55,761 nucleotides of DNA. Origin: a virus (Duplodnaviria; Caudoviricetes). Both the position numbers and the translations under genes were made by a program. The notes beneath the pieces were generated by a model. It had not been told where the DNA came from and ran no database searches. It was given only the letters and a program-made list of their open reading frames with translations. This document shows positions 1 through 45,962 of the stretch, in pieces. Each line of letters starts with the position of its first letter. Position 1 is the first letter of the stretch. The stretch covers positions 1 through 55,761 of IMG/VR virus record IMGVR_UViG_3300033148_004574. The stretch is one strand, 5' to 3'.

Positions 1-49
1 ATTGCTAGAACCCCAGGGGCGGGTATCTCGATTGCAGTAGATCGAGGCA
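1..49. repeat. Terminal direct repeat (identical to 55713-55761 and to internal 54871-54919)
   Basis: ATTGCTAGAACCCCAGGGGCGGGTATCTCGATTGCAGTAGATCGAGGCA at both ends. The continuation at 50-150 matches what follows the internal repeat copy at ~53101-53170, consistent with a circular assembly. Confidence 0.9.
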
Positions 50-153
50 CTGTCCGAGAAGCTGGGCAGCCAGGCGCGGAGCTGGAGGCAGAGCGGGACG
101 CGAGAAGATATGGGGAAGGACAGAGAAGCAGTGCCTGGAGAGGCAGGGAGGGA

Positions 154-1083
154 ATGATGCCTAGCTGCGTGCAGATGCTGGAGAAACGCGGGCTGATCGC
201 ACCGCCGGGATTTGTGGCGGGGTCGGTGCAGTACGAGGCCATCACGGGCAGCGTTGCCTTTGGCGTCTCGACGGATACGAGCGACATGGATGTGTATGGC
301 TTCTGTATCCCGCCACGCGATCTCGTGTTCCCCCACCTGCGCGGCGAGATACCGGGCTTTGGCCGCCAGACGCAGCGGTTCAATCAGTACCAGCGCCATC
401 ATATCTACTGGGCCGATGCGCAGGGCGGCAAAGGGCGGAGCTATGATCTGGCCATCTACAATATCGTCCGCTATTTCGACCTGTGTATGCAGGGCAACCC
501 GAACATGGTGGACAGTCTCTTCGGGCCGGCCAACTGTGTGCTCCACTGCACCGGGATCGGGCAGCTGGTCCGTGACAACCGGAAGTTGTTTTTGCACAAG
601 GGCTGCTGGCCGCGATACAAAGGCTACGCCTACTCGCAGTTGCACAAGATCAAGACCAAAGAGCCAGAGGGCAAACGACTGGAGGTTGTGGAGCGGTACG
701 GTTGGGACGTGAAGTTTGGATATCACCTCGTGCGCCTGCTCAACGAGGCAGAGCAGATGCTCACTGAGCACGACCTGGACCTGACGCGGAACAGTGAACA
801 GCTCAAAGCCATTCGGCGTGGCGAGTGGTCGCTGGAGCAGGTCGAGACGTACTTTGTGGACAAGGAGCGCGAGCTGGAGGCGATCTATGCCAAGAGCACA
901 TTGCGGCAAGGGCCAGACGAAGAGGCAATCAAGGCGTTGCTGCTGACTTGCCTAGAGCGATTTTGGGGATCGTTGCCGGTGGTGTCTGAGGGGCGAGACC
1001 GCCAGGCGTTGCGCGAGATACGGGACGTGTTGGATCGGTGTGGAGTGGGAGCCAATGAGCGAACAGCCGCCGGTCTATGGTAA
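154..1083 (+). CDS. Pol-beta superfamily nucleotidyltransferase (YcgL/RlaP-like)
   Basis: GSVAFGVSTDTSDMDVYG motif; NPNMVDSLF; KFGYHLVRLL and LKAIRRGEW helical C-domain; SD GGAGG upstream. Confidence 0.8.
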   Translation: MMPSCVQMLEKRGLIAPPGFVAGSVQYEAITGSVAFGVSTDTSDMDVYGFCIPPRDLVFPHLRGEIPGFGRQTQRFNQYQRHHIYWADAQGGKGRSYDLAIYNIVRYFDLCMQGNPNMVDSLFGPANCVLHCTGIGQLVRDNRKLFLHKGCWPRYKGYAYSQLHKIKTKEPEGKRLEVVERYGWDVKFGYHLVRLLNEAEQMLTEHDLDLTRNSEQLKAIRRGEWSLEQVETYFVDKERELEAIYAKSTLRQGPDEEAIKALLLTCLERFWGSLPVVSEGRDRQALREIRDVLDRCGVGANERTAAGLW

Positions 1084-1486
1084 AAAGCGGTCCCGGATCG
1101 AGGTGGTGCCGGTGATTGGCACCGATAACGTCGCCGTGCGGATGCCGCGCGAGAGATGGCAAGAGCTGGCGATGTTTGACGAGGTTCTTGAGGCCCTCAT
1201 CAACACCGTCAATCAGGCGTGCCAGGTGAAGGTCGAGGACGGCAAGTGGATCATGGACCATATGGCCTTGAGCACCTACGAAGACGCGCTGTTCTTGCTG
1301 GAGCGTATGGGATACGCCAGAGAGATCGGGCACCGGCAGTATGAGCTGTTCTGGGTGAAGCAAGACGAAAGGATGACGCGTGGTCGAGACGAAGGGCGAG
1401 CCGATGGGGACCAAGGCGGCGGTGGCGTTCCTCCTGCGCATGGTGGCGGAATGGCACAGGAAGGAGCGAAGCGGTGTGCAAGCTGA
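1055..1486 (+). CDS. Hypothetical protein
   Basis: ORF overlapping the upstream stop; phage-like composition. Confidence 0.5.
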   Translation: MSEQPPVYGKKRSRIEVVPVIGTDNVAVRMPRERWQELAMFDEVLEALINTVNQACQVKVEDGKWIMDHMALSTYEDALFLLERMGYAREIGHRQYELFWVKQDERMTRGRDEGRADGDQGGGGVPPAHGGGMAQEGAKRCAS

Positions 1487-1561
1487 CGGAGATCGGGGCT
1501 GAGGCCATCTGTTGTGCCGCGCTGTGCTGGGCGCTGGGCGAGCGTGAGGTCGAAATTGTCA

Positions 1562-2416
1562 ATGAGCACCAGGGATAGAAGGTTCGCGACTCAGATGCTT
1601 TACTCCGCAGCCGGGCGGCCAGCAATAGCTGGCATTGAGCCGCATAGCGGGCGTTGCATTATCTGTGGCCGATCAATTTCATCTGGCGCACGCGCAGTAT
1701 TCCCCGACACGTTCATGGACTATGACAAGTTCATGGCGCCGGGAGAGACGCATATCTGTGACGCTTGCCTGTTCTCCATGACCGAGCGATCGGAAGATCT
1801 CGCGCTGCGTGTGGGCAAGGATAAACCACAGTGTATGCGTAACTACTCGCATTTCGTGCTCAGCGGCGATTGGCTGCCATTGAGCAAGGGGCAGAAGCGC
1901 GAGCAATATGAGACGCTCCTGAAAAAACCGGAGCTGGCTGTCATTGCGGTGAGTGGCCAGAAGCACCTGGTATTCCGCGCGCAACCGGGGACGTGGCAAG
2001 TGGAGGAACATCACGTGGTGCCGGATATTGCGAGGTTGCAGAGAATGACGGTCTGCTTGCAACCGTTATATGATGGTGGATTCAGCAAGGCAGAGATTGA
2101 GAGCGGCAATTATCGCTCGTATCGCATCCGGAAATACGGGGTAGATCGTTGGTATCACGATGACTTGCCGCTACGGACATGGCGCGGGAGTTCGCTTTTT
2201 GAGCTGGCGGTCTTTCTATTGCAGAAGGGGGATATCGGTGGAGGAGACGATTCGGGACAAGTGTGTAGTGCTGGCCTGGGCGCTGTGGCGCGGGATGGAC
2301 AGCGACTACAAGCGCAAGTACGCGCGGGTGATCTGGGACCAGTTTCAGGTCAGGATCGCGGGCGAGGCACAGACGACCAACAGCCTGAGCAAGTACGTCA
2401 ATCAGCTTTGTTCTAA
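1562..2416 (+). CDS. csf1: Type IV CRISPR-Cas large subunit Csf1 (Cas8-like)
   Basis: CIICG...CDAC zinc motifs, SGQKHL, FSKAEIESGNY, RGSSLFELAVFL; first gene of the csf operon; C-terminal tail overlaps cas11. Confidence 0.8.
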   Translation: MSTRDRRFATQMLYSAAGRPAIAGIEPHSGRCIICGRSISSGARAVFPDTFMDYDKFMAPGETHICDACLFSMTERSEDLALRVGKDKPQCMRNYSHFVLSGDWLPLSKGQKREQYETLLKKPELAVIAVSGQKHLVFRAQPGTWQVEEHHVVPDIARLQRMTVCLQPLYDGGFSKAEIESGNYRSYRIRKYGVDRWYHDDLPLRTWRGSSLFELAVFLLQKGDIGGGDDSGQVCSAGLGAVARDGQRLQAQVRAGDLGPVSGQDRGRGTDDQQPEQVRQSALF

Positions 2417-2642
2417 GCTTGGCGTTGGACAACTCGGGGATGGTGACGAGCTAGCAGAACTAGATGCGATTCTCAATTGTGGCCAGGATCGTGCGATTCT
2501 GCGCGCCATGCGTGAGGACACGGCGCTGATTGTGCTCAAGGTGCGGCTCCTAAATGAGGAACGAAAAGAGGAACGCGAGCAACGCTATCAACTTTGGCTG
2601 GAGGAGCAAGGGATTGGGGAGGATATCCAGGATGCGGAATGA
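2238..2642 (+). CDS. cas11: Type IV-B small subunit Cas11-like
   Basis: Helical ~134 aa protein (IWDQFQVRI...SLSKYVNQLCSKL) between csf1 and csf2. Confidence 0.7.
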   Translation: MEETIRDKCVVLAWALWRGMDSDYKRKYARVIWDQFQVRIAGEAQTTNSLSKYVNQLCSKLGVGQLGDGDELAELDAILNCGQDRAILRAMREDTALIVLKVRLLNEERKEEREQRYQLWLEEQGIGEDIQDAE

Positions 2643-3615
2643 GTGGTATGCGGGGGTGGTGACGGCCCTATCGAGTATCAGCCACATTGGGCCGGACGAG
2701 CGCGGCAAGCAGAGCGTGACAAGCTACTTTCGGCGAGAGAAGGTTGTACAGCCAGATGGCATGATAGAAGAGGTGCCGGTGGTTTCTGGCAACGGTATGC
2801 GCGGTCTCTTGCGCGACTGCGGTATGTGGCAGATGTGCCGTGCACTCGGCTATGGAGAGGAAGGTGGCAAGGTAAGCGGGCTGTCGCTGGAAGCGTTTCA
2901 CTTTCTCTTTTCGGGCGGCACGCTCACCAGCACAGGCGCGCGGGCTTTGGATGTAGGTCAGGCGCGTAGAATCCGTGAGCTACTCCCCCTCGTAGGGCTT
3001 CTGGGCGGTGCGGTGGGGAACCAGATCATGCCGGGGAAACTGCGAGTCGGCAAAATGCTCATAATCTGTCAGGAGACGGCACACCTTCTACCGACGTGGT
3101 GCCATACTGAGCCGCTGCTTTCGTTCTATGATTGTGTGCAGCAGGAGGCATTTACGCGCAAAGATGACGAGAAGGACGAGCGGCTACGGCAGATGATCGC
3201 GCCCGAAACGCGGAAATTGATTGAGGCCTCTACTGTTGCTAAGCAGCGCACGAAAGGAACCGACGCCGAAAAGCCGGACGCCGAGGTCGGGCAACACCAG
3301 CAAATGCGGTACTTTGTCGAGACCCTTGCCGCGGGGACACCGTTTTTCTGGGAGTTGGCTCTTGAAGATGTGACAGATGTGGAATACGATGCTTTCTGGT
3401 CGATGATGGTTGCTTTTGCACAGAAGCCATACATCGGCGGCAAGGCGGGTACGGGTCATGGCAAGGTGCAGATCGATTTTCGCAACTGGTTACGCATTGA
3501 TCCGAACCTAGCCGAGACCGAGCGGCTACCGGACGTGCCGCTTGGCACGCGCTATGAGACGCATTTGAAAGAGCATGGTGATGCTATTCGTGAGATGCTG
3601 GCGAAATGGGACTAG
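2632..3615 (+). CDS. csf2: Type IV backbone RAMP Csf2 (Cas7-like)
   Basis: TALSSISH; VPVVSGNGMRGLLRD; LFSGGTL; LPLVGLLGG; QMRYFVETLAAGT; G-loop IGGKAGTGHG. Confidence 0.9.
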   Translation: MRNEWYAGVVTALSSISHIGPDERGKQSVTSYFRREKVVQPDGMIEEVPVVSGNGMRGLLRDCGMWQMCRALGYGEEGGKVSGLSLEAFHFLFSGGTLTSTGARALDVGQARRIRELLPLVGLLGGAVGNQIMPGKLRVGKMLIICQETAHLLPTWCHTEPLLSFYDCVQQEAFTRKDDEKDERLRQMIAPETRKLIEASTVAKQRTKGTDAEKPDAEVGQHQQMRYFVETLAAGTPFFWELALEDVTDVEYDAFWSMMVAFAQKPYIGGKAGTGHGKVQIDFRNWLRIDPNLAETERLPDVPLGTRYETHLKEHGDAIREMLAKWD

Positions 3616-4274
3616 AACCACTCCAGGTACGGGCGTGGCTGCGCGCGCCGGTAGTCAGTGACGACTACCTACCACTGGATGGCATCTTGCTCTATCAGGC
3701 GAAGCGGCATGTGCTGATGCCAGAAGCGGCGCGCTTCCCCGGCGTGACGGCGGAATCGGCTAGCGTGCGTGTGCCGTTGGCCTGCCATGGTCATCACGCT
3801 GAGCATTGGTACTATGCCTGCTCTTTTGCGCAGTGGTCACAGCCAGTGGCATACGGCAAAGACCATTGGTCGAAGCGGCTAGACACGGCGCACATCGGCA
3901 TTGTTGATCTTGGCCGCAAGAGCAAGGTCCAGATCGGAAAAGGGCGATATCGCAGTTATCACATGCCAGTATTCTACCGTTCAGCTCTATCCGTTCACTG
4001 GTATTGTGTTGGCGATGCGGAGGATATCCGCGAGCTATTAGCCGACGTGTGGGCGATTGGCAAGAAGACGGCTCAGGGCTGGGGGCGCGTGGCGCGTTGG
4101 GAGGTGAGACCCTGGCCGACGGACTGGAGTGTGGAATGCAAAGGACGGCTCATGCGCGCGATCCCAGTCGGAGATGGCGAGGAACGTAACGCTCAAGTGC
4201 GTTTGCACGGCTTTCGCCCGCCCTACTGGAAAAGGGAGAATCAGACCGCATGCTGGATGCCAGCAAAGGCCTAG
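3606..4274 (+). CDS. csf3: Type IV RAMP Csf3 (Cas5-like)
   Basis: LPLDGILLY; WYYACS; GRYRSYHMP; WYCVGDAEDIRELL; IGKKTAQGWGRV G-loop; RPPYW. Confidence 0.88.
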   Translation: MGLEPLQVRAWLRAPVVSDDYLPLDGILLYQAKRHVLMPEAARFPGVTAESASVRVPLACHGHHAEHWYYACSFAQWSQPVAYGKDHWSKRLDTAHIGIVDLGRKSKVQIGKGRYRSYHMPVFYRSALSVHWYCVGDAEDIRELLADVWAIGKKTAQGWGRVARWEVRPWPTDWSVECKGRLMRAIPVGDGEERNAQVRLHGFRPPYWKRENQTACWMPAKA

Positions 4275-4711
4275 CGCTCTGTACGTGCGCGCTTTGCGGC
4301 CGCGGTTGTCCGGCGTGGCGGTTCTTCTGCTACTGGTGTAAGCAAAGGTGGGGACTCCTGAAACCATTTGGCCAGTGGCCGGAGTGGGCAAGAGAGCTAA
4401 AGCGCGACCATCAGCGGCGGCGGTATCACGAGCGGCAGATGCTAGAGCATGTGACGTTTTTCGCGTCGATGGAGGCTATGGAGCGTGCGCTGGGGCGGGA
4501 GGTGATTGCCGAGCCTGAGCCGATAGCGCCGCCGGAGCTGCGTGCGCGCGCAGATGCTGTGTTGGCCATACTGACCGAGAGACAACAAGACGCCGTGTTG
4601 TTGCGGCTGGGGTGCGGTCTGTCGTGGAGTGAGACGGGCCGAGCGTTGGGCGTAACGTATAGGGCTGCACAGGGCCTTGTGCGACGCGCTATGGAGCGAT
4701 TGGTAGCATGA
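4250..4711 (+). CDS. Zn-ribbon + sigma-70 region 4-like HTH protein
   Basis: CALC...CYWC then WPEWARELKR; C-terminal LTERQQDAVLLRLGCGLSWSETGRALGVT. Confidence 0.7.
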   Translation: MLDASKGLALCTCALCGRGCPAWRFFCYWCKQRWGLLKPFGQWPEWARELKRDHQRRRYHERQMLEHVTFFASMEAMERALGREVIAEPEPIAPPELRARADAVLAILTERQQDAVLLRLGCGLSWSETGRALGVTYRAAQGLVRRAMERLVA

Positions 4712-5517
4712 AAGGAGGTGACAACCATGCAGCAGCCACGCAAGCAAGAGGGCGGTCCAGGCGGCGGCTAGCCGTTACGGAAGTGGATTGCCTTCGGGGG
4801 CGGCTCCGGGCTTTTACGCGCAAGGTCGAGCGTGCCTTGGACGTGATCGCTGGGGCTGCCCCGCCCGTCGGCATTGCTTTCAGCGGGGGCAAGGATTCGA
4901 CGGTTGTGCTAGATCTCGTGCGGCGTGTTTTCCCGGATGCGCCGGCTGGGTTCTTTGATAGTGGCGCGGAACTGCAAGACACGCTGGATCTGGTAGCTGC
5001 CACAACGAATGTTCAGACGATCCCGGCACTTGACGGAGGTCTGATCGAGTTGTGCCGGCAAAATGGCTATTGGGGGCACGAGCCGGAGGCGGATGATCCG
5101 CAGCCGGTAGACTTTGCGGAGGCATTGATCTATGCCCCGGCGCGCGCGTTTGTTGAGCGGAACGGGTTGCAAACCGTTGCTCTTGGTTTGCGTGCGGGGG
5201 AGTCGGTGGGCCGCCGGTTCAATGCCATCAAGAAGGGCGAGCGCTATCGAGTCGCGGACGACGTAGCGCATCTTTGCCCAATTCAATGGTGGTCAGAGGA
5301 CGACGTATGGGCCTACATCGCGACGCGGGAATTGGCATACAACGCGGCATACGACAAGATGACTGCGCTGGGGGTCCCGCGCAAGCATCAGCGTATCTGT
5401 ACGAATCTGGGGACCGATGCGGCATCCTTTGGCCGATACGTATACCTGCGCCAGATAGACCCCGAGCTCTGGAATCGTCTGGCGGGGGAGTTCCCACTGA
5501 TTCGCAAGTATACGTGA
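4708..5517 (+). CDS. cysH: CysH/PAPS-reductase-like protein (type IV-B associated)
   Basis: PP-loop AFSGGKDSTV; LGLRAGES..R; PIQWWSEDDVWAYI; YNAAYDKM. Confidence 0.88.
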   Translation: MKGGDNHAAATQARGRSRRRLAVTEVDCLRGRLRAFTRKVERALDVIAGAAPPVGIAFSGGKDSTVVLDLVRRVFPDAPAGFFDSGAELQDTLDLVAATTNVQTIPALDGGLIELCRQNGYWGHEPEADDPQPVDFAEALIYAPARAFVERNGLQTVALGLRAGESVGRRFNAIKKGERYRVADDVAHLCPIQWWSEDDVWAYIATRELAYNAAYDKMTALGVPRKHQRICTNLGTDAASFGRYVYLRQIDPELWNRLAGEFPLIRKYT

Positions 5518-5633
5518 TCGGAGGCGAGGTGAGCGATGAGGGACAACCTGTTCGCGCCGCGGGCTACACTGTGTCGCTGTGTGCTGAGCTTCCTGCGTGA
5601 GGCGGGCCGCATTTTGAGCAGGTTCGGGGGCGC

Positions 5634-5930
5634 ATGAATCATTCGCTGTCGGCCCTTGGGCGATACGAGGAGCCGCCGCTTGGGGCAGGTGACGGACGCG
5701 ACTGGCTCCGGCACGAGCTGGCCTTCTGGGATTACGTTTCCGACGATTGCCGGCGGTTTCTTGACGTCCTCCCCCTGCGGCAGCGGAATGCGGTTGTGGC
5801 GGTGTACGGCTATCGCTACACGCTGGACCAGGCGGCCTACAAACTGGGCGTATCGCCGCGCACACTACAGCGTGACATAGCATGCGCGGCGGAGCTGGCA
5901 GAGAGGCGAGAAGAGCTACGACCGGGGTGA
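5634..5930 (+). CDS. Sigma-70 region 4-like HTH regulator
   Basis: LPLRQRNAVVAVYGYRYTLDQAAYKLGVSPRTLQRDI. Confidence 0.65.
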   Translation: MNHSLSALGRYEEPPLGAGDGRDWLRHELAFWDYVSDDCRRFLDVLPLRQRNAVVAVYGYRYTLDQAAYKLGVSPRTLQRDIACAAELAERREELRPG

Positions 5931-6055
5931 TCGTGGCTCTTCTGGTTGGGCCGTCGCGAAGACTCTGGATGTTAGGTGCTGTAGATCTCTTTGTCCAGCG
6001 GCGCCGTCCCGAGCAAGGGTTCGATAAACGTGATCATTATCTCATAGCGGTCCAT
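5930..6055 (-). pseudogene. Truncated/frameshifted 5' remnant of a putative phage stand-alone RAMP-like gene
   Basis: SD AAGGAG + ATG 6055: MDRYEIMITFIEPLLGTAPLDKEIYST then TAAC; removing one A gives Y-IQSLRDGPT. Confidence 0.45.
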
Positions 6056-6596
6056 GGTTCTCCTTTCGCAGCGCCTCAATATCTGAGCGCAACACGCGCT
6101 GACGTTTCTGGGGGTTGGGTTCCGTGATGTCAGGGTAGGCCATGATATCGCCCCGCCCGATGCGGTGACTGATGGCCTGTGTGGTGATGCCCAGCAGCCC
6201 GGCGGCCTCTGAGATGGTGATCAACTCGTCGCCCTGCACCTTGGCGAACGCCGCGGCAACCATCGCGCCCAGGTCGGTCTTCCAGAAGGCGCGTGGTATC
6301 TCGTATGACCCCAAGAGCGGCGATGAGAACAGCCGCTCCATCAGGTCTTGTATCCCTTCGTAAACGACTCCTCGATTCCACTCTGTCGGTTGTATGTCCC
6401 CGCTGGCCATACGCGCGATCTCCGCCAACTGGTCGGCCAGTGCGGAGGCGTACAGCACGGTCTCGGGAACGTGGGTGATTTGAATGCCGATAAACGCCTG
6501 CTCCATCTCCCAGCGGCGGCGTCGGTAGTATTGTAGGATGAACGCCTTGATGGCCTCGCGGTACTGCTCCGGTGTACGGCTCAAAACGTCTGTCAT
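6042..6596 (-). CDS. Protein with C-terminal excisionase/MerR-like HTH
   Basis: LITISEAAGLLGITTQAISHRIGRG...RVLRSDIEAL; SD AGGAGG at 6601-6606. Confidence 0.7.
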   Translation of the reverse strand: MTDVLSRTPEQYREAIKAFILQYYRRRRWEMEQAFIGIQITHVPETVLYASALADQLAEIARMASGDIQPTEWNRGVVYEGIQDLMERLFSSPLLGSYEIPRAFWKTDLGAMVAAAFAKVQGDELITISEAAGLLGITTQAISHRIGRGDIMAYPDITEPNPQKRQRVLRSDIEALRKENHGPL

Positions 6597-6627
6597 GATG
6601 CCTCCTACTCCAAAGCCCGCCTGAACT

Positions 6628-6951
6628 TCAGCTTTCCCAATCCCACGCCGAGCCGTCTTCCAACATCTTCGACCACTCTGCGATAGTGAATCGCGCCAAC
6701 TCGCGCGTAGGCCGGATGCGGTAGCCATCGTAGATTTCCGCTAGCACCTCGCCTTCAAGAATGACGAGATCGTCATCGTTATCCATCGCGTCCCAGGCCC
6801 CACCGAAACGGGATCCGCCGTCGCGACCGTCGGGACTCATTGAAACGGCCAGGCCTTCGCTTGCTCCATCGCCACCATCTGCGCTGTTCCAGGTTCTCAT
6901 CTCGTCGAAGCTGATGCCCTTGGTCTGGACCCTGAAAAAATGCTTTGCCAT
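6628..6951 (-). CDS. Hypothetical protein
   Basis: SD GGAGG and a consensus promoter directly upstream. Confidence 0.65.
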   Translation of the reverse strand: MAKHFFRVQTKGISFDEMRTWNSADGGDGASEGLAVSMSPDGRDGGSRFGGAWDAMDNDDDLVILEGEVLAEIYDGYRIRPTRELARFTIAEWSKMLEDGSAWDWES

Positions 6952-6987
6952 CTCGTGCCTCCCTCTGTCTCTCTGCCTTACATTGAT

Positions 6988-7016
6988 ATCATATCATAAC
7001 GTGCTCACGTTGTCAA
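6988..7016 (-). promoter_or_regulatory. Sigma-70 promoter with palindromic operator
   Basis: TTGACA-17-TATGAT on the minus strand; palindrome AACGTGCTCACGTT at 6998-7011 in the spacer. Confidence 0.7.
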
Positions 7017-7105
7017 GAGATTCTGAGAATGCAACGAAACCTGCAACCCGCCCGATTCTGCAAGGCATCCTGCACGGATTCTGCCGGATCCCGATCAGAA
7101 TCCTG

Positions 7106-7140
7106 TGTCGTGTTTGTCGTGTTTGTCGCGTCTGTCGTGC
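7106..7140 (+). repeat. Four tandem 9-nt repeats (TGTCGTGTT) upstream of a rightward operon
   Basis: TGTCGTGTT TGTCGTGTT TGTCGCGTC TGTCGTGC followed by a -10-like TGCTACGCT. Confidence 0.6.
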
Positions 7141-7181
7141 CAGGTGGTGCTACGCTGCGAGAGAGCACAATCGGAGGTGAC

Positions 7182-7400
7182 ATGCACACATACACATACG
7201 ATCCACGCGACCAGCTCGACAGCCGGATCGACCTGCAACGTGCCGTGGCCAGGTTGGACGCCATCGACCGGACGATTCTGGAGATGACGGTCGCCGGGTA
7301 CACGCAGGCTGAGATCGGAGAGCGGGTGGGAATGACGCATCAGGCGGTCGCGCTGCGGCTGGCATCAGTTCAGGGCAAGTTGGTGTGTTGGTTGACATAA
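7182..7400 (+). CDS. Sigma-70 region 4-like HTH regulator
   Basis: IDLQRAVARLDAIDRTILEMTVAGYTQAEIGERVGMTHQAV; SD GGAGGT. Confidence 0.75.
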   Translation: MHTYTYDPRDQLDSRIDLQRAVARLDAIDRTILEMTVAGYTQAEIGERVGMTHQAVALRLASVQGKLVCWLT

Positions 7401-7446
7401 CGCCTTGCAAAAGAGGGCGTTTTTGTGCTGTAGAAAGTGAGGGGGT

Positions 7447-7704
7447 ATGGCGTCTTTGGGCCGGTGCATGATCTGTGACAAGCGGATTGCGTGTGCGCAT
7501 GTCATATGTGCTGGCTGCGAGCGCGACTATGGGTTGGGTGGGCCGCGACGAGACTGGCCCGCTTGGGCCAAGGCCCTCTATCGAGAGTATCGCCAACAGC
7601 GGCGGTTGGAGAAGGATCGTCTTGCACACGAAGATGCCACCGAGCGGGGGGACGCAGTCTATAACATCTCTTGCTACGGGAACTTCAATGACGACGGGTG
7701 TTGA
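7447..7704 (+). CDS. Zn-ribbon protein, paralog of the N-terminal half of 4250-4711
   Basis: CMIC...CAGC then WPAWAKALYREYRQQRR. Confidence 0.6.
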   Translation: MASLGRCMICDKRIACAHVICAGCERDYGLGGPRRDWPAWAKALYREYRQQRRLEKDRLAHEDATERGDAVYNISCYGNFNDDGC

Positions 7705-7880
7705 TTCTCGGGTTGCAGCGCTCCGCGAGGGGCGGGCGTGGCCGATCTTTACGAGACAAGAGCCGCGGGCAACGGGTGATGCCTGGACGCGGCTGCTTGC
7801 TCTCTTGGATGACGCGAGCTGACCGGCCCAGAGCCGGCACAGTATACGGCCGCGTCATGCGCGGCTAGCCGAGTTGTTTT

Positions 7881-8064
7881 CCGAGTTTCTGACCGTTCAT
7901 CAGCGAGGGGGCGTCGTCACTAAGACGTTTGCGCGAGGTGCGGATGACTGCCGCGTAAACATCGCGCGCGCTAGCGACCTGGCGTGGACGGTCAAAAGCC
8001 CGTAAGGCCCGGAGTGCCTGGCCGTCACAGCGGTGACCTAGAGACCGTGACAGACTGAAATCGG
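7881..8064 (+). ncRNA. Candidate structured non-coding RNA
   Basis: Nested helices: CCGAGTTTC/GAAATCGG, TGACCGTTCA/TGGACGGTCA, GCGCGA/TCGCGC, GTCAC/GTGAC in an ORF-free gap. Confidence 0.4.
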
Positions 8065-8094
8065 GTGCCGGGGTGGCCCAGGGTGGAGGTGGAC

Positions 8095-8487
8095 GTGACT
8101 GACCACGCCGATGACCTGGTACGGTATGGCCCCGACGCCGTTGCTACGCGCGTGATCCAACGCCAGGGTGGCGCGTTAGAGTGGTTGGGGGCGGACGCGA
8201 TGATTACTGACTTCTACGCTCAGCCGCCAGCCGAGGCAGAAGAGTACGGAGGGCCGGTCATCGTTGAGAGTGTGGAAGAGATGGCCGTGCCTGTAGTTGA
8301 CGTTGGCAGGGATGCCAGTAGCGAGACGACGGCCATGTGGCAGCCCGAGGCAGACGACACCATGAGCTTGCCCGAGGGATACGTGCAGGACGCGGTGGAG
8401 CGGGTGCTTGCGCCCAGCAGGGCCGTCGTGATCAAGGAGGTTCTGCGCGAGGACGCGGAGCTGTGGCAGAGGCTGGCGGATGCCTAA
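8095..8487 (+). CDS. Hypothetical protein with antitoxin-like C-terminus
   Basis: SD GGAGGT; ends EVLREDAELWQRLADA. Confidence 0.5.
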   Translation: MTDHADDLVRYGPDAVATRVIQRQGGALEWLGADAMITDFYAQPPAEAEEYGGPVIVESVEEMAVPVVDVGRDASSETTAMWQPEADDTMSLPEGYVQDAVERVLAPSRAVVIKEVLREDAELWQRLADA

Positions 8488-8546
8488 GCGGCTGGTTGCC
8501 GCATTGCGGCGGCGCGCTCGGTTCTTGCGGGCGCGGTGACGCTGGC

Positions 8547-8855
8547 ATGACCCATGCCCAGCTTTGGCTTGCGGTGCTGGAGCGCGACGACAGGACGTGC
8601 CAGGATTGCGGCTGTTATGCGGTCGAGACGCACCACATTGTTGGCAGGCGACGCGAGGGCGCATGGGACGTGCGCAACATGATCACGCTGTGCCCAATGT
8701 GCCATCGTGGCCGCGACAAGGGCGCCGGCGCGCACACACACGCGGCGCGGCTGCGGCACATCGCGTTGCTGCGGGCCAAGCATGGGTACGACTACAGCGA
8801 CATGGGCGGGCGGTGGACGGAACTGGTGAGGGAGCTTGGCGAAACAAATCACTGA
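8547..8855 (+). CDS. HNH endonuclease (packaging-associated)
   Basis: VLERDDRTCQDCG...ETHHIVGR...NMITLCPMCH. Confidence 0.85.
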   Translation: MTHAQLWLAVLERDDRTCQDCGCYAVETHHIVGRRREGAWDVRNMITLCPMCHRGRDKGAGAHTHAARLRHIALLRAKHGYDYSDMGGRWTELVRELGETNH

Positions 8856-10128
8856 TATCGCGGACCTGACACCCGACGCGAAGAACGCCAACCGGGGCAC
8901 AGAGCGCGGGCGGTATATGATCGAGCAGAGCCTCCGCAAGCTGGGCGCTGGTCGGTCCATCGTCGTTGACGCTGACGGCCAAGTGGTTGCGGGCAACAAG
9001 ACGCTGGAAGCCGCCGCCGAGCTGGACCTGCCGGTGCGTGTGGTGCGGACCAACGGCCAGGAGTTGGTAGTCGTCCAGCGCGAGGACTGGCACCTCGACG
9101 CGGACGGCCCGGCGAGAGAGTACGCCTACGCCGACAACAGAGCGAGTGAGATTGGCCTGGACTGGGATCCCGCGCAGGTGGCGTTGGACCTTGACGCCGG
9201 CCTGGACCTGTCGGACATGTTCCGCGAGGACGAGCTGCAAGCGGTGCTGGAGCAGGCGGCGAATGAGATGCTTGCGGCGGATGGTGCCGAAGCACCGGAG
9301 CCACAGATCGACAAGGCCGCCGAGTTGCAGGAGAAGTGGCAGATCGAGCGTGGGCAGATATGGGAGATCCCGAGCAAGACCGTCAACGGCAGATGTCATC
9401 GTGTTATGTGCGGCGACAGCACAAGCGCAGATGATGTGGCGCGGTTGTATGGCGATGCCCGTCTCTCTGTTGTGTGGACTGATCCGCCATATGGTGTGAG
9501 CTATGGCAAAAAGAACCGCTATCTCCAAACGATCGGTCGGGCCGATCGTTTGCTTGGCGATATCGAGGGTGATGACCTGAAGCCCGAGCAGGTTTTTGTG
9601 TTAGTGCGCGATGCGTTGGCCGCGCTGGCGACGCTCGCGGTGCCGGGCGCGGTGGCATATGTAGCGGCCCCGCCGGGGCCGCTACACCGCTTCTTCATCG
9701 ATGCCATGAATGCGTCGGGCTTCCAGTATCGGCACCAGCTCATTTGGTTGAAAAACCAGCTAGTCTTTGGGCGCAGCGATTACATGTACAAGCATGAGCC
9801 GATCTTGTATGGCTGGCTGCAGAATGGGGCGCATTTCTTCGAGCCGCGAACCAGCAACTGCTCGGTGTTTGAGTTTGACCGGCCTCGGGCCTCAAAGATG
9901 CATCCGACCGAGAAGCCGGTGGAGCTGGTCGCTGCGATGATTCAGAATAGCTGTCAGCCCGGAGATACTGTGGGCGAGGCTTTTGCGGGTAGCGGGACGG
10001 ATTTCGTTGCTGCTGAGCGGACGGGTCGCCTTTGCTATGGCATGGAGATTGAGCCGAAGTACGTTGCCGTCACGCTCCAGCGGCTTGTCGATATGGCCCT
10101 AGAGCCTCGGTTGGCGGGGACGAGCTGA
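8836..10128 (+). CDS. ParB-like N-domain + N6/N4 DNA methyltransferase
   Basis: LTPDAKNAN...GRSIVVD...AGN...YADNR; TDPPYGV; HPTEKPVEL; FAGSGT; GMEIEPKY. Confidence 0.88.
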   Translation: MAKQITDIADLTPDAKNANRGTERGRYMIEQSLRKLGAGRSIVVDADGQVVAGNKTLEAAAELDLPVRVVRTNGQELVVVQREDWHLDADGPAREYAYADNRASEIGLDWDPAQVALDLDAGLDLSDMFREDELQAVLEQAANEMLAADGAEAPEPQIDKAAELQEKWQIERGQIWEIPSKTVNGRCHRVMCGDSTSADDVARLYGDARLSVVWTDPPYGVSYGKKNRYLQTIGRADRLLGDIEGDDLKPEQVFVLVRDALAALATLAVPGAVAYVAAPPGPLHRFFIDAMNASGFQYRHQLIWLKNQLVFGRSDYMYKHEPILYGWLQNGAHFFEPRTSNCSVFEFDRPRASKMHPTEKPVELVAAMIQNSCQPGDTVGEAFAGSGTDFVAAERTGRLCYGMEIEPKYVAVTLQRLVDMALEPRLAGTS

Positions 10129-10130
10129 AT

Positions 10131-10631
10131 GTGGTCAGGCAAGGCACGCACGAAACACTTGACACACTTGGCCCAACTATGGACGCCTTTTGCGAGGCAC
10201 TGCGCAAGTGGGGCATCGTGCGGCATGCCTGCGAGCAGGCCAAGATCGGGCGGACGACCGCCTACCGTTGGCGCAAGAAGTACAAGACTTTTGCCGACCG
10301 ATGGGACGACGCGCTGGAAGACGCGACCGACAGTTTGGAGATGATCGCGCGGGCGCGGGCGGTGCGCAAGGTCAACCCGAGCGACCGGCTGCTGGTGCTG
10401 CTGCTGAAGGCGCATAGGCCGGAGAAGTTCGGCGACACGCAGCGACACGAGCACACAGGCAAGGACGGCGGGCCAATTGAGGCGAAGGTAACAATAAGTG
10501 CCGAGGAGCGAGACCGAGCGATTGCTGCGCTCGCAGAGTACATTGAGAGCGGGCTATGCAAGCGCAATGATGAGGCGGACGGCGCTTTGGGTGCCACAGA
10601 GCGCGGCGCAGTGGGCGGGCTATCTGAGTAA
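10131..10631 (+). CDS. Terminase small subunit
   Basis: HTH ACEQAKIGRTTAYRWR; SDRLLVLLLKAHRPEKF; EHTGKDGGPI. Confidence 0.8.
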   Translation: MVRQGTHETLDTLGPTMDAFCEALRKWGIVRHACEQAKIGRTTAYRWRKKYKTFADRWDDALEDATDSLEMIARARAVRKVNPSDRLLVLLLKAHRPEKFGDTQRHEHTGKDGGPIEAKVTISAEERDRAIAALAEYIESGLCKRNDEADGALGATERGAVGGLSE

Positions 10632-11967
10632 GGCCGACGAGCTGTTCTACGGCGGCGCGGCTGGTGGGGGAAAGAGCGATCTCCTGCTGGGCCTAGCCGC
10701 AACTGCGCACCGGCGCAGCATCATCTTTCGGCGCGAGTACCCGCAACTGATGGGGATCATAGACCGGGGGAAGCAGATCATCACGGCCGAGTACGGGACA
10801 TATAACGGTCAGGATCACGTTTGGCGGATGAAAGACGGCCGCCAGATCGAGCTTGGCGCCGTGCAGTATGAGGGCGACGTGCAGAAATACCAGGGGCGGC
10901 CGCACGATTTGGTAGCATTCGATGAGGGTCCGCAGTTCACCGAGGCGCAGTACAGGTTTCTCAATGGATGGAAGCGTACCGAAGACCCGAACCAGCGAAC
11001 GCGGACGGTGTTGACAGGCAATCCGCCGGTGACGGCAGAGGGGCGCTGGGTGATCGATTATTGGGCGCCGTGGCTAGACCCAGCGCACGACAACCCAGCG
11101 CTGCCGGGCGAGCTACGATGGTTCGCGGTGCTTGGGGGTGAGGACGTAGAGGTAGACGGGCCGGAGCCGATCGTACACGACGGCGAGACGATCCACCCCA
11201 AGAGCAGGACGTTCATCCCGGCGCGCGTCGAGGACAACCCGTTCTATATGGCCACAGGATACAAGAGCCAGCTCCAGGCGTTGCCGGAGCCGCTGCGGAG
11301 TGCACTGCTGCATGGTGACTTTCGTGTTGCTGTTGAGGACGACCCGTGGCAGATCATCCCGCGCGCGTGGGTGCGGGCGGCGATGGATCGCTGGCAGGAT
11401 GGGCCGGTGGGGCCGATGACGGCGTTGGGCGTAGACGTGGCGCGCGGAGGCAGGGACAGAACGGTGCTGGTCGCACGACATGGGCAGTGGTTCGCGCCGT
11501 TACGAGTGTATCCGGGCAGTAGGACGCCCGACGGGCCGGCGGTGGCGGCGCTAGTGACGGGTGCCGTAGGCGATGCCAACCCGGTGGTCAACGTTGACGT
11601 GATTGGTGTGGGAGCGTCGGTTTACGATCACCTGCGTGACAGGTTCGACACGGTAGGGGTGAACTTTGGTGAGGGGAGCGATGAACTAGACCGCTCGGGC
11701 CGGCTGACATTTGCCAATGTGCGCGCACAGGCATACTGGCAGATGCGTGAGGCGCTGGACCCGGCGAATGGTGCGGAGATCGCGCTGCCGGACGATCCGG
11801 CGCTCTTGGCGGAGCTTTGCACGCCACGCTGGACGATGCGCGCGCGGGGGATTCAGGTGGAGAGCAAGGTCGAGATAGTGAAGCGCACGGGCCGATCGCC
11901 GGACCTTGCAGACGCCGTTGTGCTGGCGTTGCTGCCCACGGCTACGGCCTCAATTATCCTCATATGA
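10567..11967 (+). CDS. terL: Terminase large subunit (start uncertain)
   Basis: Walker A YGGAAGGGKS; Walker B VAFDEG; TGNP; nuclease LGVDVARGGRD...SPDLADA. Confidence 0.92.
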   Translation: MMRRTALWVPQSAAQWAGYLSKADELFYGGAAGGGKSDLLLGLAATAHRRSIIFRREYPQLMGIIDRGKQIITAEYGTYNGQDHVWRMKDGRQIELGAVQYEGDVQKYQGRPHDLVAFDEGPQFTEAQYRFLNGWKRTEDPNQRTRTVLTGNPPVTAEGRWVIDYWAPWLDPAHDNPALPGELRWFAVLGGEDVEVDGPEPIVHDGETIHPKSRTFIPARVEDNPFYMATGYKSQLQALPEPLRSALLHGDFRVAVEDDPWQIIPRAWVRAAMDRWQDGPVGPMTALGVDVARGGRDRTVLVARHGQWFAPLRVYPGSRTPDGPAVAALVTGAVGDANPVVNVDVIGVGASVYDHLRDRFDTVGVNFGEGSDELDRSGRLTFANVRAQAYWQMREALDPANGAEIALPDDPALLAELCTPRWTMRARGIQVESKVEIVKRTGRSPDLADAVVLALLPTATASIILI

Positions 11968-38417: not shown

Positions 38418-39878
38418 ATGATAGGAGCAGGGCGCGTCGCGGTGCTGGGGCAGCGGGGCAGGACATTCCATACGACGTTCCAGAGCATGGGCGGTCTCAC
38501 CAACCTCCTGGGCACGATGGCGGTGTCCGGGGGGTATGCGCAGGGGAGCGCGCTACGAGGCTACGATTACGCATGGCTCGTCCAGCGACTTGGTAGCGAG
38601 ACATACGCGTGGGCGTTGGCACCATGTGCGGACGGCTCGATGATTGCGGGAACGGCCCCAAATGGTCAAGTGTACCGCTCGACGGACAATGGCGCATCAT
38701 GGTCATTCGTTCAACAGCTCGGTAGCGAGGAGTACGTGTTTGCGTTGGCGCCATGTGCGGACGGCTCGATGGTCGCGGGAACGCACCCAAATGGTCAAGT
38801 GTACCGCTCGACGGACAATGGCGCATCATGGTCGTTCGTCCAGCAACTTGGTAGTGCGACATACGTGAATGCATTGGCGCCATGTGCGGACGGCTCGATG
38901 ATTGCGGGAACGTACCCAAATGGTCAAGTGTACCGCTCGACGGACAATGGCGCATCATGGTCATTCGTTCAACAGCTCGGTAGCGAGACGCAGGTGCTTG
39001 CATTGGCGCCATGTACGGACGGCTCGATGATCGCGGGAACGGCCCCAAATGGTCAAGTGTACCGCTCGACGGACAATGGCGCATCATGGTCGTTCGTTCA
39101 ACAGCTCGGTAGCGAGGAGTACGTGCGTGCATTGGCGCCATGTACGGACGGCTCGATGGTCGCGGGAACGCGCCCGACTGGTCAAATCTACCGCTCGACG
39201 GACAATGGCGCATCATGGTCATTCGTTCAACAGCTCGGTAGCGAGGAGTACGTGAATGCGTTGGCGCCATGTGCGGACGGCTCGATGGTCGCGGGAACGT
39301 ACCCAAATGGTCAAGTGTACCGCTCGACGGACAATGGCGCATCATGGTCGTTCGTCCAGCAACTTGGTAGCGAGACGCAGGTGCGTGCATTGGCGCCATG
39401 TGCGGACGGCTCGATGATTGCGGGAACGGCCCCAAATGGCCAGGTGTACCATTTGGGCACGGCTATCGCCTACCACGAGTTCGCCGCCAGCGCCACTATC
39501 GACTGGGGCGTGGTCATGCCGGCAGCCGGTACAACGCCGCGGCTGTTGCCGTTTCGCATCAGTGACGCAATCAACTTGTGGCAAGTGCGGATTCTACCAA
39601 ACACGACACCCGACTGCTATCTGATCGAGCGCAACGCTGGTGTGGAAACCGTGCGGGCCAGCGCCGATGTAGACTGGTCTGTCGGTGCTACTGATGAGGT
39701 ACGTGTGGTGGCAAGGGGCGCGACGATCACCGTCTATCACCGCAAGAGTGGCGCAGGATCGTGGACCGAAGCCTGCTCGTATGGCAGCGCGACGTTCCAG
39801 CAGACAGCGACTCGGCACGGCGTCGCAGCATACGATACAAGCGCCAACCTGTTTTCCTATCTGAGGATGGCAGCATGA
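38418..39878 (+). CDS. Seven-bladed BNR/Asp-box beta-propeller protein (putative receptor-binding)
   Basis: Seven 43-aa repeats with YRSTDNGASW Asp-boxes. Confidence 0.8.
   Translation: MIGAGRVAVLGQRGRTFHTTFQSMGGLTNLLGTMAVSGGYAQGSALRGYDYAWLVQRLGSETYAWALAPCADGSMIAGTAPNGQVYRSTDNGASWSFVQQLGSEEYVFALAPCADGSMVAGTHPNGQVYRSTDNGASWSFVQQLGSATYVNALAPCADGSMIAGTYPNGQVYRSTDNGASWSFVQQLGSETQVLALAPCTDGSMIAGTAPNGQVYRSTDNGASWSFVQQLGSEEYVRALAPCTDGSMVAGTRPTGQIYRSTDNGASWSFVQQLGSEEYVNALAPCADGSMVAGTYPNGQVYRSTDNGASWSFVQQLGSETQVRALAPCADGSMIAGTAPNGQVYHLGTAIAYHEFAASATIDWGVVMPAAGTTPRLLPFRISDAINLWQVRILPNTTPDCYLIERNAGVETVRASADVDWSVGATDEVRVVARGATITVYHRKSGAGSWTEACSYGSATFQQTATRHGVAAYDTSANLFSYLRMAA
38574..39452 (+). repeat. 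Coding tandem repeat, 129 nt x ~6.8
   Basis: Near-identical 129-nt units starting at 38574, 38703, 38832, 38961, 39090, 39219, 39348. Confidence 0.95.
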
Positions 39879-41828: not shown

Positions 41829-41876
41829 AGTGTCTACTTTATCTGGTCCTGTCGAAGACGAGATAAAGGCGACACT
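41829..41876. other. Candidate attP for the serine integrase
   Basis: 48-bp imperfect inverted repeat AGTGTC-TA-CTTTATCT...AGATAAAG-GC-GACACT abutting the integrase stop. Confidence 0.5.
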
Positions 41877-43326
41877 AGAGCCAGCGGATTGTGAGCCGAA
41901 CCGGGTCTTTGTAGAGATCGATGCGAGCAATGAGCGCCCCGTACAGCTCGCGGAGTTCGGGCGGGGGTAGGTCATCGAGAGAGCCGAGCATATCATGGAG
42001 ATCGGCCAGGGTCTGCGCGGTCTTGCCAAAGTCCACGACAGACGCGGCCAGCTCGTCGCGGCGCCGGATGAGGTCAGCCAGGTCTGAGCCAAGTCGCTGC
42101 CGGTGTGCCATCAGCTCTGCCGCATCGATGCCGCCACGCTCAAAGAGCCGGTCCCAGCGCGCCCGACCGTTCTCTACCTCCGCAATCTGGCTGTTGAGCG
42201 CGACCAGCTCGGTGTGACCGTTGCCATTGTGGGCCTCCTCCTGTGCTTGTCGCCAAGCGCCGGGGTTGTCCAGGGCATCACGTACAGCGGCCAGCACGGC
42301 CTGCTCGATCTCGTCGACGCGCCATCGGCCGGCGTCACACAGCTCACGCGAGCGGCCATAGTGGTTGCAGCGCAGGTAGTCGCAGTGACCCGGCCCCCGA
42401 TGGGCATAGGAGACACCGGCGCCGCACTGGCCGCACTTGACCAGGCCGGTGAGGGCATAGGGCGACGCGATGGGCACCGTCGCACGGTTCTCGTTGACAG
42501 ATTGCACCTGCTGCCAGAGTGCGTCGTCGATGATTGCCTCGTGCTCGGCGTTTGGGTTGTAAGCCGTACCCCAACGCACGCCGCCACGGTATAGGTCGTT
42601 GTGAAGAATGCTGCGTACACTCGTGTAGGCCCAGCGCCCGCCGAGTGCCGTGGGCGCATGGCGCTCATTGAGCCCGGCGACGATACGATCATAGCCCCAG
42701 CCCTTGGCGCGCTGTTCGTAGACCCACCGTATCCACACGGCCTCGGTCTCATTGACCACGAGCAGACCATCTGGATCGCGGCGATAGCCATAGGCGGGGC
42801 GACCGGCGTTGTACTGGCCGGCCCGAATGCGCGCCTCCATGCCGGTGCGGTGGCGCTTGGAGCGGATGATATTCTCCTGCTCTGCGAGCCAGGACATGAT
42901 GAGCGGACTTAGCGCCGTGCCGCGCCGGGCCAGCGACTCAGGCGGCAGCGGCTCCTCGCGGTGGTTGAGCGCATACACCTGGACGCCGTGTTGACGGCAG
43001 AGGGCCATCAGTTGCGATTGCAGCGAGACGGTGCGCCAGAGACGGTCATAGTCGCGGCAGCAGAGCAGGTCAACCTCCTCGCGCTCGATCAGGCCGACCA
43101 TCGCCGCATAGTCGGGACAGTCGTTCATCAGTGCATGGAGCCATTCGTAGTTGCGCGAGTGGTGGATCACCACCTCGCGGACAATCATCCAGCCGTGATC
43201 GTTGCAGGCGGCGCGGTTGTCGGCGAGCTGTTGGGGCAAGCTGGCTTTGTCGTCCGTCGCTTGGGCATCGGTGCTGACGGCGGCGACGGACAGAACGCGG
43301 TAGGTTGTTGGCTTTGGTATGGACAT
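41875..43326 (-). CDS. Large serine recombinase (integrase)
   Basis: AVSTDAQ...SLPQQ; DRLWR; PAYGY; HEAIID; LTGLVKCGQCG Zn-ribbon; coiled-coil. Confidence 0.92.
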   Translation of the reverse strand: MSIPKPTTYRVLSVAAVSTDAQATDDKASLPQQLADNRAACNDHGWMIVREVVIHHSRNYEWLHALMNDCPDYAAMVGLIEREEVDLLCCRDYDRLWRTVSLQSQLMALCRQHGVQVYALNHREEPLPPESLARRGTALSPLIMSWLAEQENIIRSKRHRTGMEARIRAGQYNAGRPAYGYRRDPDGLLVVNETEAVWIRWVYEQRAKGWGYDRIVAGLNERHAPTALGGRWAYTSVRSILHNDLYRGGVRWGTAYNPNAEHEAIIDDALWQQVQSVNENRATVPIASPYALTGLVKCGQCGAGVSYAHRGPGHCDYLRCNHYGRSRELCDAGRWRVDEIEQAVLAAVRDALDNPGAWRQAQEEAHNGNGHTELVALNSQIAEVENGRARWDRLFERGGIDAAELMAHRQRLGSDLADLIRRRDELAASVVDFGKTAQTLADLHDMLGSLDDLPPPELRELYGALIARIDLYKDPVRLTIRWL

Positions 43327-43355
43327 TGCTGCTACTCGGTGGTATAATGCGTCAG

Positions 43356-43373
43356 ATAGAACATATGTTCTAT
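43356..43373. promoter_or_regulatory. LexA (SOS) box
   Basis: Perfect palindrome ATAGAACATATGTTCTAT (AGAAC-N4-GTTCT) between TGGTATAAT (+, -10 at 43343) and TTGACA-18-TAGAAT (-, 43372-43401). Confidence 0.75.
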
Positions 43374-43400
43374 TCTATCACCACTCTCGGGGGGCTGTCA

Positions 43401-45075: not shown

Positions 45076-45144
45076 GGAGCCTCCATGTATTGACCGTTGC
45101 GCCGCTTCTCCCAGTGCGGCGCGGTGTAGTTGTCAACAATTGCT

Positions 45145-45498: not shown

Positions 45499-45540
45499 AC
45501 GTATTGTACCATGAATCTTGACGCTTAGTCCGAAAAGTGC

Positions 45541-45956: not shown

Positions 45957-45962
45957 CCCCCA

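Follow-up and report, generated by a model that had tools for sequence, protein, structure and literature searches.

An array-less type IV-B CRISPR-Cas effector operon in the genome of a temperate tailed phage

The IMG/VR virus record IMGVR_UViG_3300033148_004574, a stretch of 55,761 nucleotides (nt) that was analyzed at its full length and is referred to here as the window, carries at positions 1562-5517 six co-directional and overlapping open reading frames (ORFs) on the plus strand which, to judge by their sequences, form an intact type IV-B CRISPR-Cas effector operon. A first-pass annotation, made from the sequence alone, had proposed a phage-borne, array-less operon of this type with the gene order csf1-cas11-csf2-csf3-X-cysH. 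This proposal was borne out, with unchanged gene positions, by PADLOC and Pfam matches, by the match of Csf2 to a solved structure (PDB 7jhy), by the CheckV assessment of the carrier genome and by the absence of other CRISPR-Cas components. The features that define type IV-B are csf1, a cas11 gene between csf1 and csf2, csf2 and csf3, an adjoining cysH-like gene, and the lack of a DinG or RecD helicase, of Cas6, of a CRISPR array and of adaptation genes. The locus shows every defining feature that could be examined, RecD not having been searched for separately. Taken as a whole, the data are probably best explained by an intact type IV-B operon in a complete temperate phage, which may act by the more tentative mechanism proposed below.

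The first gene of the operon, csf1 (1562-2416), encodes a Cas8-like large subunit with a zinc finger. It matched the PADLOC profile Csf1_0_IV with an expectation value (E) of 1.1e-26 over profile positions 8-216 of 227, and TIGR03114 under the cut-off (E 3.4e-8), and the cysteines of its CxxC...CxxC pattern are kept in an alignment of 36 sequences. The ATG at 1562 was chosen as its start, as in the first-pass annotation; a longer ORF opens at GTG 1514. The small-subunit gene cas11 (2238-2642; Cas11_1_IV, E 6.3e-19) is read in the +1 frame relative to csf1 and starts at GTG 2238, where GAAGGGGG was read ahead of the start codon and where the tblastn matches of relatives begin at residues 1-16. 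The Cas7-like backbone subunit is encoded by csf2 (2632-3615; Csf2_0_IV, E 1.1e-75), starting at ATG 2632 with GGGGAGGA ahead of it; the PADLOC match opens at residue 32 of the longer ORF. For a profile built from 22 Csf2 homologues, the top solved structure was the type IV-B Csf2 of PDB 7jhy (E 2e-32). The Cas5-like subunit encoded by csf3 (3606-4274) matched Csf3_0_IV (E 2.6e-50) and, under the cut-off, TIGR03116 (E 8.2e-19). None of Csf1, Cas11, Csf2 and Csf3 had a match in the Pfam search. These four genes are followed by gene X (4250-4711), which encodes a zinc ribbon and a sigma-70 region 4 helix-turn-helix (HTH) domain (Pfam Sigma70_r4_2, E 5.3e-8; Sigma70_r4, E 1.3e-6), and by the cysH-like gene (4708-5517), which encodes a CasCysH protein classed as a PP-loop adenine-nucleotide alpha-hydrolase (Pfam PAPS_reduct, PF01507, E 3e-16). 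The overlaps amount to 179 nt for csf1/cas11, 11 nt for cas11/csf2, 10 nt for csf2/csf3, 25 nt for csf3/X and 4 nt for X/cysH. Together with the SGGKDS motif, they corroborate the earlier description of overlapping effector genes accompanied by a PP-loop CysH-like gene.

In an alignment of 38 CysH-like sequences the residues S59, G61, K62, D63, S64, G160, R162 and E165 were invariant, the PP-loop reading SGGKDS. The same alignment contained no conserved C-terminal cysteine, and the sole C-terminal cysteine of the window's protein falls in a non-conserved column. Accordingly, both hallmarks of CasCysH were observed: a PP-loop of the form SGGxDS/T where reductases have their P-loop, and the loss of the C-terminal catalytic cysteine. 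In the available text of PMC8175902, CasCysH is described as a probable ATP alpha-hydrolase that is unable to perform reductase or phosphorothioation chemistry. The protein matched phrog_2302 (E 1.4e-31), and its AlphaFold2 model reached a predicted local distance difference test (pLDDT) value of 92. The nearest structures in a Foldseek search with this model were PAPS/APS reductases, followed by TtuA, NcsA and TilS, which modify tRNA bases at the expense of ATP, and by FMN adenylyltransferase, with template modelling (TM) scores of ~0.5. The modelled fold and the motif would thus be in agreement with the proposed ATP alpha-hydrolase activity. A complex prediction for Csf1 and Csf3 with CysH as the partner gave a score of 0.00 (mark 0.32), which argues neither for nor against their association.

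On the evidence of its gene content and ends, the carrier is a temperate phage of siphovirus-like type with a complete genome of ~55.7 kb. IMG/VR lists the record as an entire virus genome of the direct terminal repeats class with a CheckV completeness of 100%, and the terminal repeat of 49 nt fits a sequence that closes on itself; the earlier impression of a complete genome therefore holds as far as can be told. PHROG matches were obtained for a large terminase (10498-11967), a portal protein, a major head protein, a tape measure protein and a tail protein, and, on the minus strand, for a large serine integrase (41875-43326). The structural matches and the integrase are the reasons for regarding the phage as a temperate phage with a tail. 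The operon shares its strand with the early genes, which extend from ~47 to 55.7 kb and wrap around to 5.9 kb, and is located between these early genes and the HNH, DNA methylase and terminase genes, with the integrase block on the opposite strand. The first-pass annotation had suggested a role in the lytic phase. The layout on the early-gene strand fits this suggestion, and a role in lytic development is a reasonable inference from it, but the suggestion draws on gene order alone and the phage, which encodes an integrase, is temperate. In scans of positions 1-9000, promoters (3 versus 2.7) and terminators (6 versus 5.3) were predicted at the level of shuffled sequences.

Since the record is derived from a metagenome, and since probable chimeric array joins were encountered at the ends of two related contigs, it was considered whether host or plasmid DNA had been mis-assembled onto a phage contig. 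This is extremely improbable: the operon is internal to the record, the GC content is even through the operon region and the contig closes on itself. Moreover, a phage-family nucleotidyltransferase gene (phrog_388) borders the operon on one side, the HNH, methylase and terminase genes lie on the opposite side, and the same module was found in 14 other near-complete viral records and in one cultured phage.

No CRISPR array was detected in the window with Tandem Repeats Finder, with an interspaced-repeat search or with two-copy scans down to 18-nt repeats. Every CRISPR-like interspaced-repeat match in the genome was accounted for by two pentapeptide-repeat genes. These are located on the plus strand at 53342-53983 and 54932-55639 (Pfam E 6e-37 and 1e-38, respectively), where they flank a 248-amino-acid gene without assignment in the early region. 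Searches of the whole genome at E <= 1 returned no Cas6 (PF10040), no match to the type IV Cas6 model (PADLOC PDLC01717), no Cas1 (PF01867), no Cas2 (PF09827) and no DinG (Helicase_C_2, PF13307; Csf4/DinG, TIGR03117), RecD not having been searched for separately; control genomes included in the same searches did match. Likewise, tblastn with the Cas6 proteins of viral relatives gave no match in the window (best E 0.4). The profile searches and repeat scans thus agree with the first-pass statement that cas6, dinG, cas1/2 and a CRISPR array are lacking from this genome. Because the phage genome is complete, whatever the system needs must lie among the ~70 phage genes or come from the host.

The only RNA gene in the genome, and the only Rfam match, is a tRNA-Ala(CGC) on the minus strand (46483-46558). 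Two regions had previously been put forward as phage non-coding RNAs. The first of these, 7881-8064, was rejected as a structured RNA, since the segment 7860-8070 folds no better than shuffled sequences (z -1.31) and has no Rfam match; the second, 45963-46558, merely holds the tRNA. This tRNA is contained, on the opposite strand, in a 315-amino-acid plus-strand ORF (45953-46900) that has no family match and is probably not a gene. The choice offered by the first-pass annotation, an RNA partner that is either supplied by the host or one of the phage non-coding RNAs, is also not exhaustive, as the one type IV-B complex that has been purified bound heterogeneous non-CRISPR RNA according to the accessible part of PMC7937560.

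To place the operon among its relatives, we gathered related loci with alignments as queries (labels beginning with L or G denote related loci and records). Alignment queries were needed, as scans with single proteins found no close relatives in viral or metagenome contigs. The Csf2 search, which covered 4144 candidates, returned 817 homologues at E <= 1e-3; the closest non-self homologue is 75% identical. Relatives of Csf2 were found in 50 IMG/VR loci (51 of 74 candidate stretches were confirmed), in 13 loci on contigs of metagenome-assembled genomes assigned to Chloroflexi, Bacteroidetes, Acidobacteria, Ignavibacteria and others, and in 56 metagenome loci, which in part represent the same contigs counted twice. 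A completeness of 90% or more is reached by 14 of the 50 viral records; terminal repeats are present in 7 of the 50, and 5 are listed as proviruses. The rarity implied by the first-pass annotation was therefore overstated, all the more so because type IV-B systems of viruses and prophages have been published (PMC10848311 and PMC7038947, as far as their available texts go). Csf2 identity to the window ranged from 34 to 66% in the viral loci and from 34 to 75% over all loci. Matches to all five core proteins of the window were obtained in 40 of the 50 viral loci; among the 39 that have enough flank, the number was 33. A cysH-like gene accompanies Csf2 in 43 of the 50. The order csf3-then-cysH was found in 23 viral loci and the order cysH-then-csf3 in 17. 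Other window genes seldom recur in the related loci, which indicates that the module is housed in largely unrelated phage backbones. The conservation of the core genes at 34-66% Csf2 identity indicates that the module is maintained by selection.

Deposited phage genomes yielded a single relative. While blastn with the operon found no match in 50,697 phage records, Skermania phage SPI1 (KR011061.1) was the sole Csf2 match among them (36.5% identity). Its operon is located at 3822-7455 of L065, where Orf40-43 correspond to Csf1, Cas11, Csf2 and Csf3 by PADLOC and where Orf44 is a PAPS_reduct protein that is 28% identical to the window's CysH-like protein and carries SGGKDS. All five of these proteins, Orf40 to Orf44, are annotated as hypothetical, and no publication in the collection searched joins Skermania, SPI1 and CRISPR. 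On plasmids, Csf2 was at most 35.1% identical to that of the window (71 PLSDB records, mostly from Rhodococcus and Mycobacterium).

The last ~60 codons of csf1 (2238-2416) overprint the 5' third of cas11 in another frame. In the window and in 36 related locus entries (for example L004, L007, L025 and L067; one contig is counted twice among the 36), csf1 reaches 68-248 nt into cas11, and cas11 is read without exception in the +1 frame; in a more distant subclade csf1 is shorter and scarcely enters cas11, if at all. To estimate the chance of an open csf1 frame, the rate of T ahead of codons starting with AA, AG or GA was taken, for each locus, from the remainder of its own cas11 and csf2. For the frame to be open across the overlap, the chance per locus had a median of 0.054, which is not a formal probability because the loci are related. 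The open csf1 frame over cas11 thus looks maintained. The csf1 tail follows a common pattern that ends in a Q-x-x-L-F motif, although the Cas11 frame could impose much of this conservation. These observations also bear on the idea that the operon is merely carried along, as an inert or degenerating leftover of cas genes that were acquired horizontally and now do nothing for the phage. Such an idea might be suggested by the absence of an array, of adaptation genes and of a nuclease, and type IV-B has been suspected of being defective (PMC7038947, in the text available). Nevertheless, all six genes have open frames and are coupled in translation, conservation of the five core genes extends over loci with 34-75% Csf2 identity, the catalytic-type residues of CysH are invariant, and the csf1 frame is open over cas11 in the window and the 36 entries with the low median chance given above; a mere remnant is therefore very improbable.

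Among the 50 viral relatives, four encode Cas6 in or beside the IV-B operon (L024, at 9678-10355, and L046, L049 and L051). Two complete Cas6-bearing viral records had no CRISPR array in the bases scanned (60,000 of 60,396 for G023, all for G050). The presence of Cas6 in these four relatives, two complete ones of which are array-less, was new to us, as were the overlap of the csf1 tail with cas11 and the recurrence of small helix-turn-helix genes between csf3 and cysH. In addition, a relative with 65% Csf2 identity (L003, 127-217, equal to L073, 890-980) has a mini-array of two identical 28-nt palindromic repeats around a 35-nt spacer, 17 nt upstream of csf1. Directly upstream of the mini-array lies a truncated TnpB/Cas12f-like ORF (L073, 40-543; PF07282, E 5e-24), and the ownership of the mini-array is ambiguous because it is located between this ORF and csf1. 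When its repeat and spacer were searched in the viral contigs, L003 alone matched, and neither the window nor loci L002-L064 contained a copy of the repeat with up to 8 mismatches. One phage lineage also showed arrays at contig ends, here with a 32-nt repeat (L087, 11449-11677; L120, 30-126). A phage origin was rejected as the likeliest explanation for these arrays, given their position at contig ends and the lack of an array at the same point of the 99.4%-identical contig L017; they are probably host arrays that were joined in assembly via a phage-matching spacer.

The Cas6 genes and the mini-array bear on the possibility that the Csf complex takes up mature CRISPR RNAs (crRNAs) of the host, either as an anti-CRISPR sponge or for reuse, and that CysH marks or inactivates whatever is bound. 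In favour of this, a full Cascade-like set of subunits is encoded without an array and Cas6 of its own, and the idea is discussed in the available text of PMC7038947. The mini-array next to csf1 suggests that RNA of the crRNA type is usable in the clade, and Cas6 is encoded by the four viral relatives mentioned. Conversely, the Mycobacterium complex took up no co-expressed type I-E crRNAs (PMC8175902 and PMC7937560, available parts), the authors of PMC7038947 judged so complex an anti-CRISPR unlikely, and the mini-array may be owned by the adjoining TnpB/Cas12f-like gene. We rank crRNA hijacking second among the mechanisms considered and regard it as unlikely.

The protein encoded by gene X begins with a CxxC...CxxC zinc ribbon that carries a WPxW motif, continues with a long helix and ends in a sigma-70 region 4 (-35-binding) HTH. 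Both Pfam matches are over the cut-off (PF08281, 32.8 bits; PF04545, 28.3 bits), and the protein matched the PHROG sigma factor family phrog_1190 (E 6e-6). In its AlphaFold2 model (mean pLDDT 79), the C-terminal 53 residues superpose on region 4 of Mycobacterium tuberculosis SigD with a root-mean-square deviation of 0.7 Å, the Foldseek E being merely 4.5e-3. No match to sigma region 2 was found; TIGR02937 aligns with positions 59-161 of 165 at 29 bits, compared with a cut-off of 42.9. Because it lacks region 2 and has a zinc ribbon at its N-terminus, X is not a complete sigma factor. Orthologues of X occupy the same slot between csf3 and cysH in four distinct close relatives (L002/L072, L003/L073, L070 and L071), and a database homologue search with X matched X alone. 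Among the 23 viral loci in which cysH comes after csf3, clustering assigned a gene to this slot in 9. In one cluster (L007/L012/L018), GerE was over the cut-off in L007 alone, with a weak match in L012 and none in L018; in another (L011/L013/L015/L025), Sigma70_r4_2 was over the cut-off in L025 alone and weak in the other three; the slot gene of L067 encodes an HTH_23 protein over the cut-off. A second small sigma-region-4-like HTH gene follows the operon on the plus strand at 5634-5930 (Sigma70_r4_2, E 4.5e-5; Sigma70_r4, E 9.9e-5; both slightly under the Pfam cut-off). Its homologue lies after cysH in L070 (40% identity), and in the viral locus L042 a tblastn match of 35% lies 4.4 kb past csf3; none was seen in the other 117 of 119 loci. 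This gene is possibly associated with the operon as a putative member. A paralogue of the N-terminal zinc-ribbon/WPxW domain of X is encoded as a stand-alone protein of 85 amino acids at 7447-7704 on the plus strand.

A sigma region 4 fold encoded inside the operon raises the possibility that the complex, in the manner of the nuclease-free interference of type IV-A, attaches to nucleic acid and either blocks transcription or diverts it, with X as the link to promoters or RNA polymerase by which the expression of phage or host genes is switched. Unrelated small HTH genes in the same slot of other subclades (L007, L025 and L067 over the cut-off), the position of the operon at the early-to-late boundary upstream of the terminase gene, and the suppression of gene expression by type IV-A (PMC11519345, available text) are all compatible with this. 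It leaves CysH without a role, however, and the slot gene occurs in only 9 of the 23 csf3-then-cysH viral loci and is absent from the cysH-then-csf3 order; moreover, X has no sigma region 2 and is not a full sigma factor. Transcription control comes third in our ranking, and we consider it somewhat more doubtful than the capture of host crRNAs.

Other genes of the phage were noted as well. Two genes upstream of csf1, an RlaP-like nucleotidyltransferase is encoded on the plus strand (154-1083; PF10127, E 1e-13; phrog_388, E 6e-44). A link between this gene and the operon was dropped, as just one of the 119 related loci has a homologue close to csf1. Directly upstream of the terminase gene, the plus strand encodes an HNH endonuclease and an N6/N4 DNA methylase (8337-10128); in 15 related loci, the IV-B operon has a methylase homologue on its downstream side. 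Besides the serine integrase, the minus-strand block at 41875-46089 encodes an SH3_3 protein and a staphylococcal-nuclease-like protein that carries an Excalibur domain. The gene of a BNR/sortilin-like repeat protein (38418-39878), probably a tail-fibre or receptor-binding protein, contains about seven copies in tandem of a 129-nt unit, which are 83-91% alike (38578-39480).

The mechanism that we rank first, tentative as it is and inferred throughout, is a loading of the complex that is independent of guides or uses host RNA, with CysH as the output. In this mechanism, Csf2 and Cas11 would polymerize, together with Csf1 and Csf3, on an RNA that is not supplied by the phage as crRNA; the RNA loaded could be a host crRNA or another cellular or phage RNA. 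Loading without crRNA is suggested by two observations: the purified Mycobacterium type IV-B complex bound heterogeneous RNA of 55-60 nt (PMC7937560, accessible part), and the two complete Cas6-bearing relatives are array-less. The CysH-like protein would provide the enzymatic output, an adenylation-type chemistry on the nucleic acid that is held or found by the complex, as the canonical PP-loop of ATP pyrophosphatases is kept and the reductase cysteine is lost. X, with its sigma region 4, would probably tie the module to DNA or RNA polymerase, or would merely regulate it. The module as a whole would serve the replicating phage in conflicts with the defences of the host or with competing mobile elements.

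Several points weigh against this picture. No RNA partner of the complex was found. Genes of the PAPS-reductase-like kind are widespread among phages that have no Csf genes, the PHROG family matched here being one example. X may be an ordinary phage regulator within the operon, as it is confined to four close relatives, and the mini-array of L003/L073 may mean that the clade is crRNA-guided after all. Furthermore, the NCBIfam models TIGR03114, TIGR03115 and TIGR03116 (Csf1, Csf2 and Csf3) gave 33.4, 67.8 and 68.1 bits compared with cut-offs of 140, 130 and 140; with scores under these equivalog cut-offs, Csf1-3 are diverged relatives of those models and not members as the models define them.

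The function and the native RNA of type IV-B are described as unknown in the available texts of PMC7038947, PMC8175902 and PMC7937560, in line with what the first-pass annotation had stated, and type IV-B is the sole CRISPR-Cas subtype for which both the RNA partner and the role of the signature enzyme are unknown. The comparison set adds many independent phage carriers of such systems, and any model must explain the HTH gene in the csf3-cysH slot and the csf1 tail overprinted on cas11. SPI1 provides a cultured carrier in which knock-outs and RNA pull-downs are feasible. A wider and more speculative reading, to which we attach little probability, would be that the window belongs to a large, mostly virus-borne and little-described branch of type IV-B without an element-encoded guide, which uses host or bulk RNA and in which CasCysH and the recurrent DNA-binding slot protein chemically mark nucleic acid or rewire transcription while the phage develops. 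This reading takes its basis from the 50 IMG/VR records, the one cultured phage, and Csf2 identities of up to 75% in metagenomes versus up to 35% to plasmids. If it were true, the system would serve to take over the host or to counter its defences rather than to confer immunity, and the maintained overprinting of the Csf1 tail on cas11 would help to set subunit stoichiometry or assembly.

When compared with known systems, the window operon is a further example of a known but functionally unsolved system, and its classification is unchanged. It is not a new kind of operon because type IV-B of plasmids, prophages and archaeal viruses is already published: the available text of PMC7038947 places it on plasmids and sometimes in prophages, and that of PMC10848311 reports type IV-B with CysH on archaeal viruses and cites type IV in lytic phages. 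In the literature examined, part of it as partial texts, we did not meet the overprinted Csf1 tail, the SPI1 operon, the HTH slot between csf3 and cysH or so wide a range of viral carriers, which is not to claim that they are unpublished. The complex of the Mycobacterium sp. JS623 plasmid (PDB 7JHY; PMC7937560, accessible part) resembles the window in its four subunits, its cysH and the absence of an array and Cas6. It differs in being plasmid-borne rather than phage-borne, with plasmid Csf2 at most 35.1% identical to that of the window, and in that the accessible part of its description mentions no internal HTH gene, whereas the window has X. Assembly into an RNA-bound Csf2/Cas11 filament is known only for the Mycobacterium complex. 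The 'Fuxiviridae' viruses of Bathyarchaeia (PMC10848311, available text) likewise carry virus-borne Csf1-3 and a CysH-like protein without an adaptation module, but they are archaeal viruses with a two-repeat mini-array, and the window has no array. Skermania phage SPI1, a cultured tailed phage that at 55,748 bp is similar in size, shares the order csf1-cas11-csf2-csf3-cysH-like, but its Csf2 and CysH are 36.5% and 28% identical to those of the window and it has no gene between csf3 and cysH. Type IV-A has homologous Csf1, Csf2 and Csf3 and, like the window, no nuclease; it possesses DinG (Csf4), the Cas6-like Csf5 and an array, all three of which are absent from the window, which has Cas11 and CysH instead. 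Finally, the CysH-like protein of the window shares its fold with PP-loop ATP pyrophosphatases and PAPS reductases such as CysH, TtuA, TilS and DndC (Foldseek E 1.5e-8 to 3.5e-5). The TM-scores are only ~0.5, however, and the conserved C-terminal catalytic cysteine of PAPS reductase is absent; its SGGKDS motif is as in the ATP-using members of the PP-loop group.

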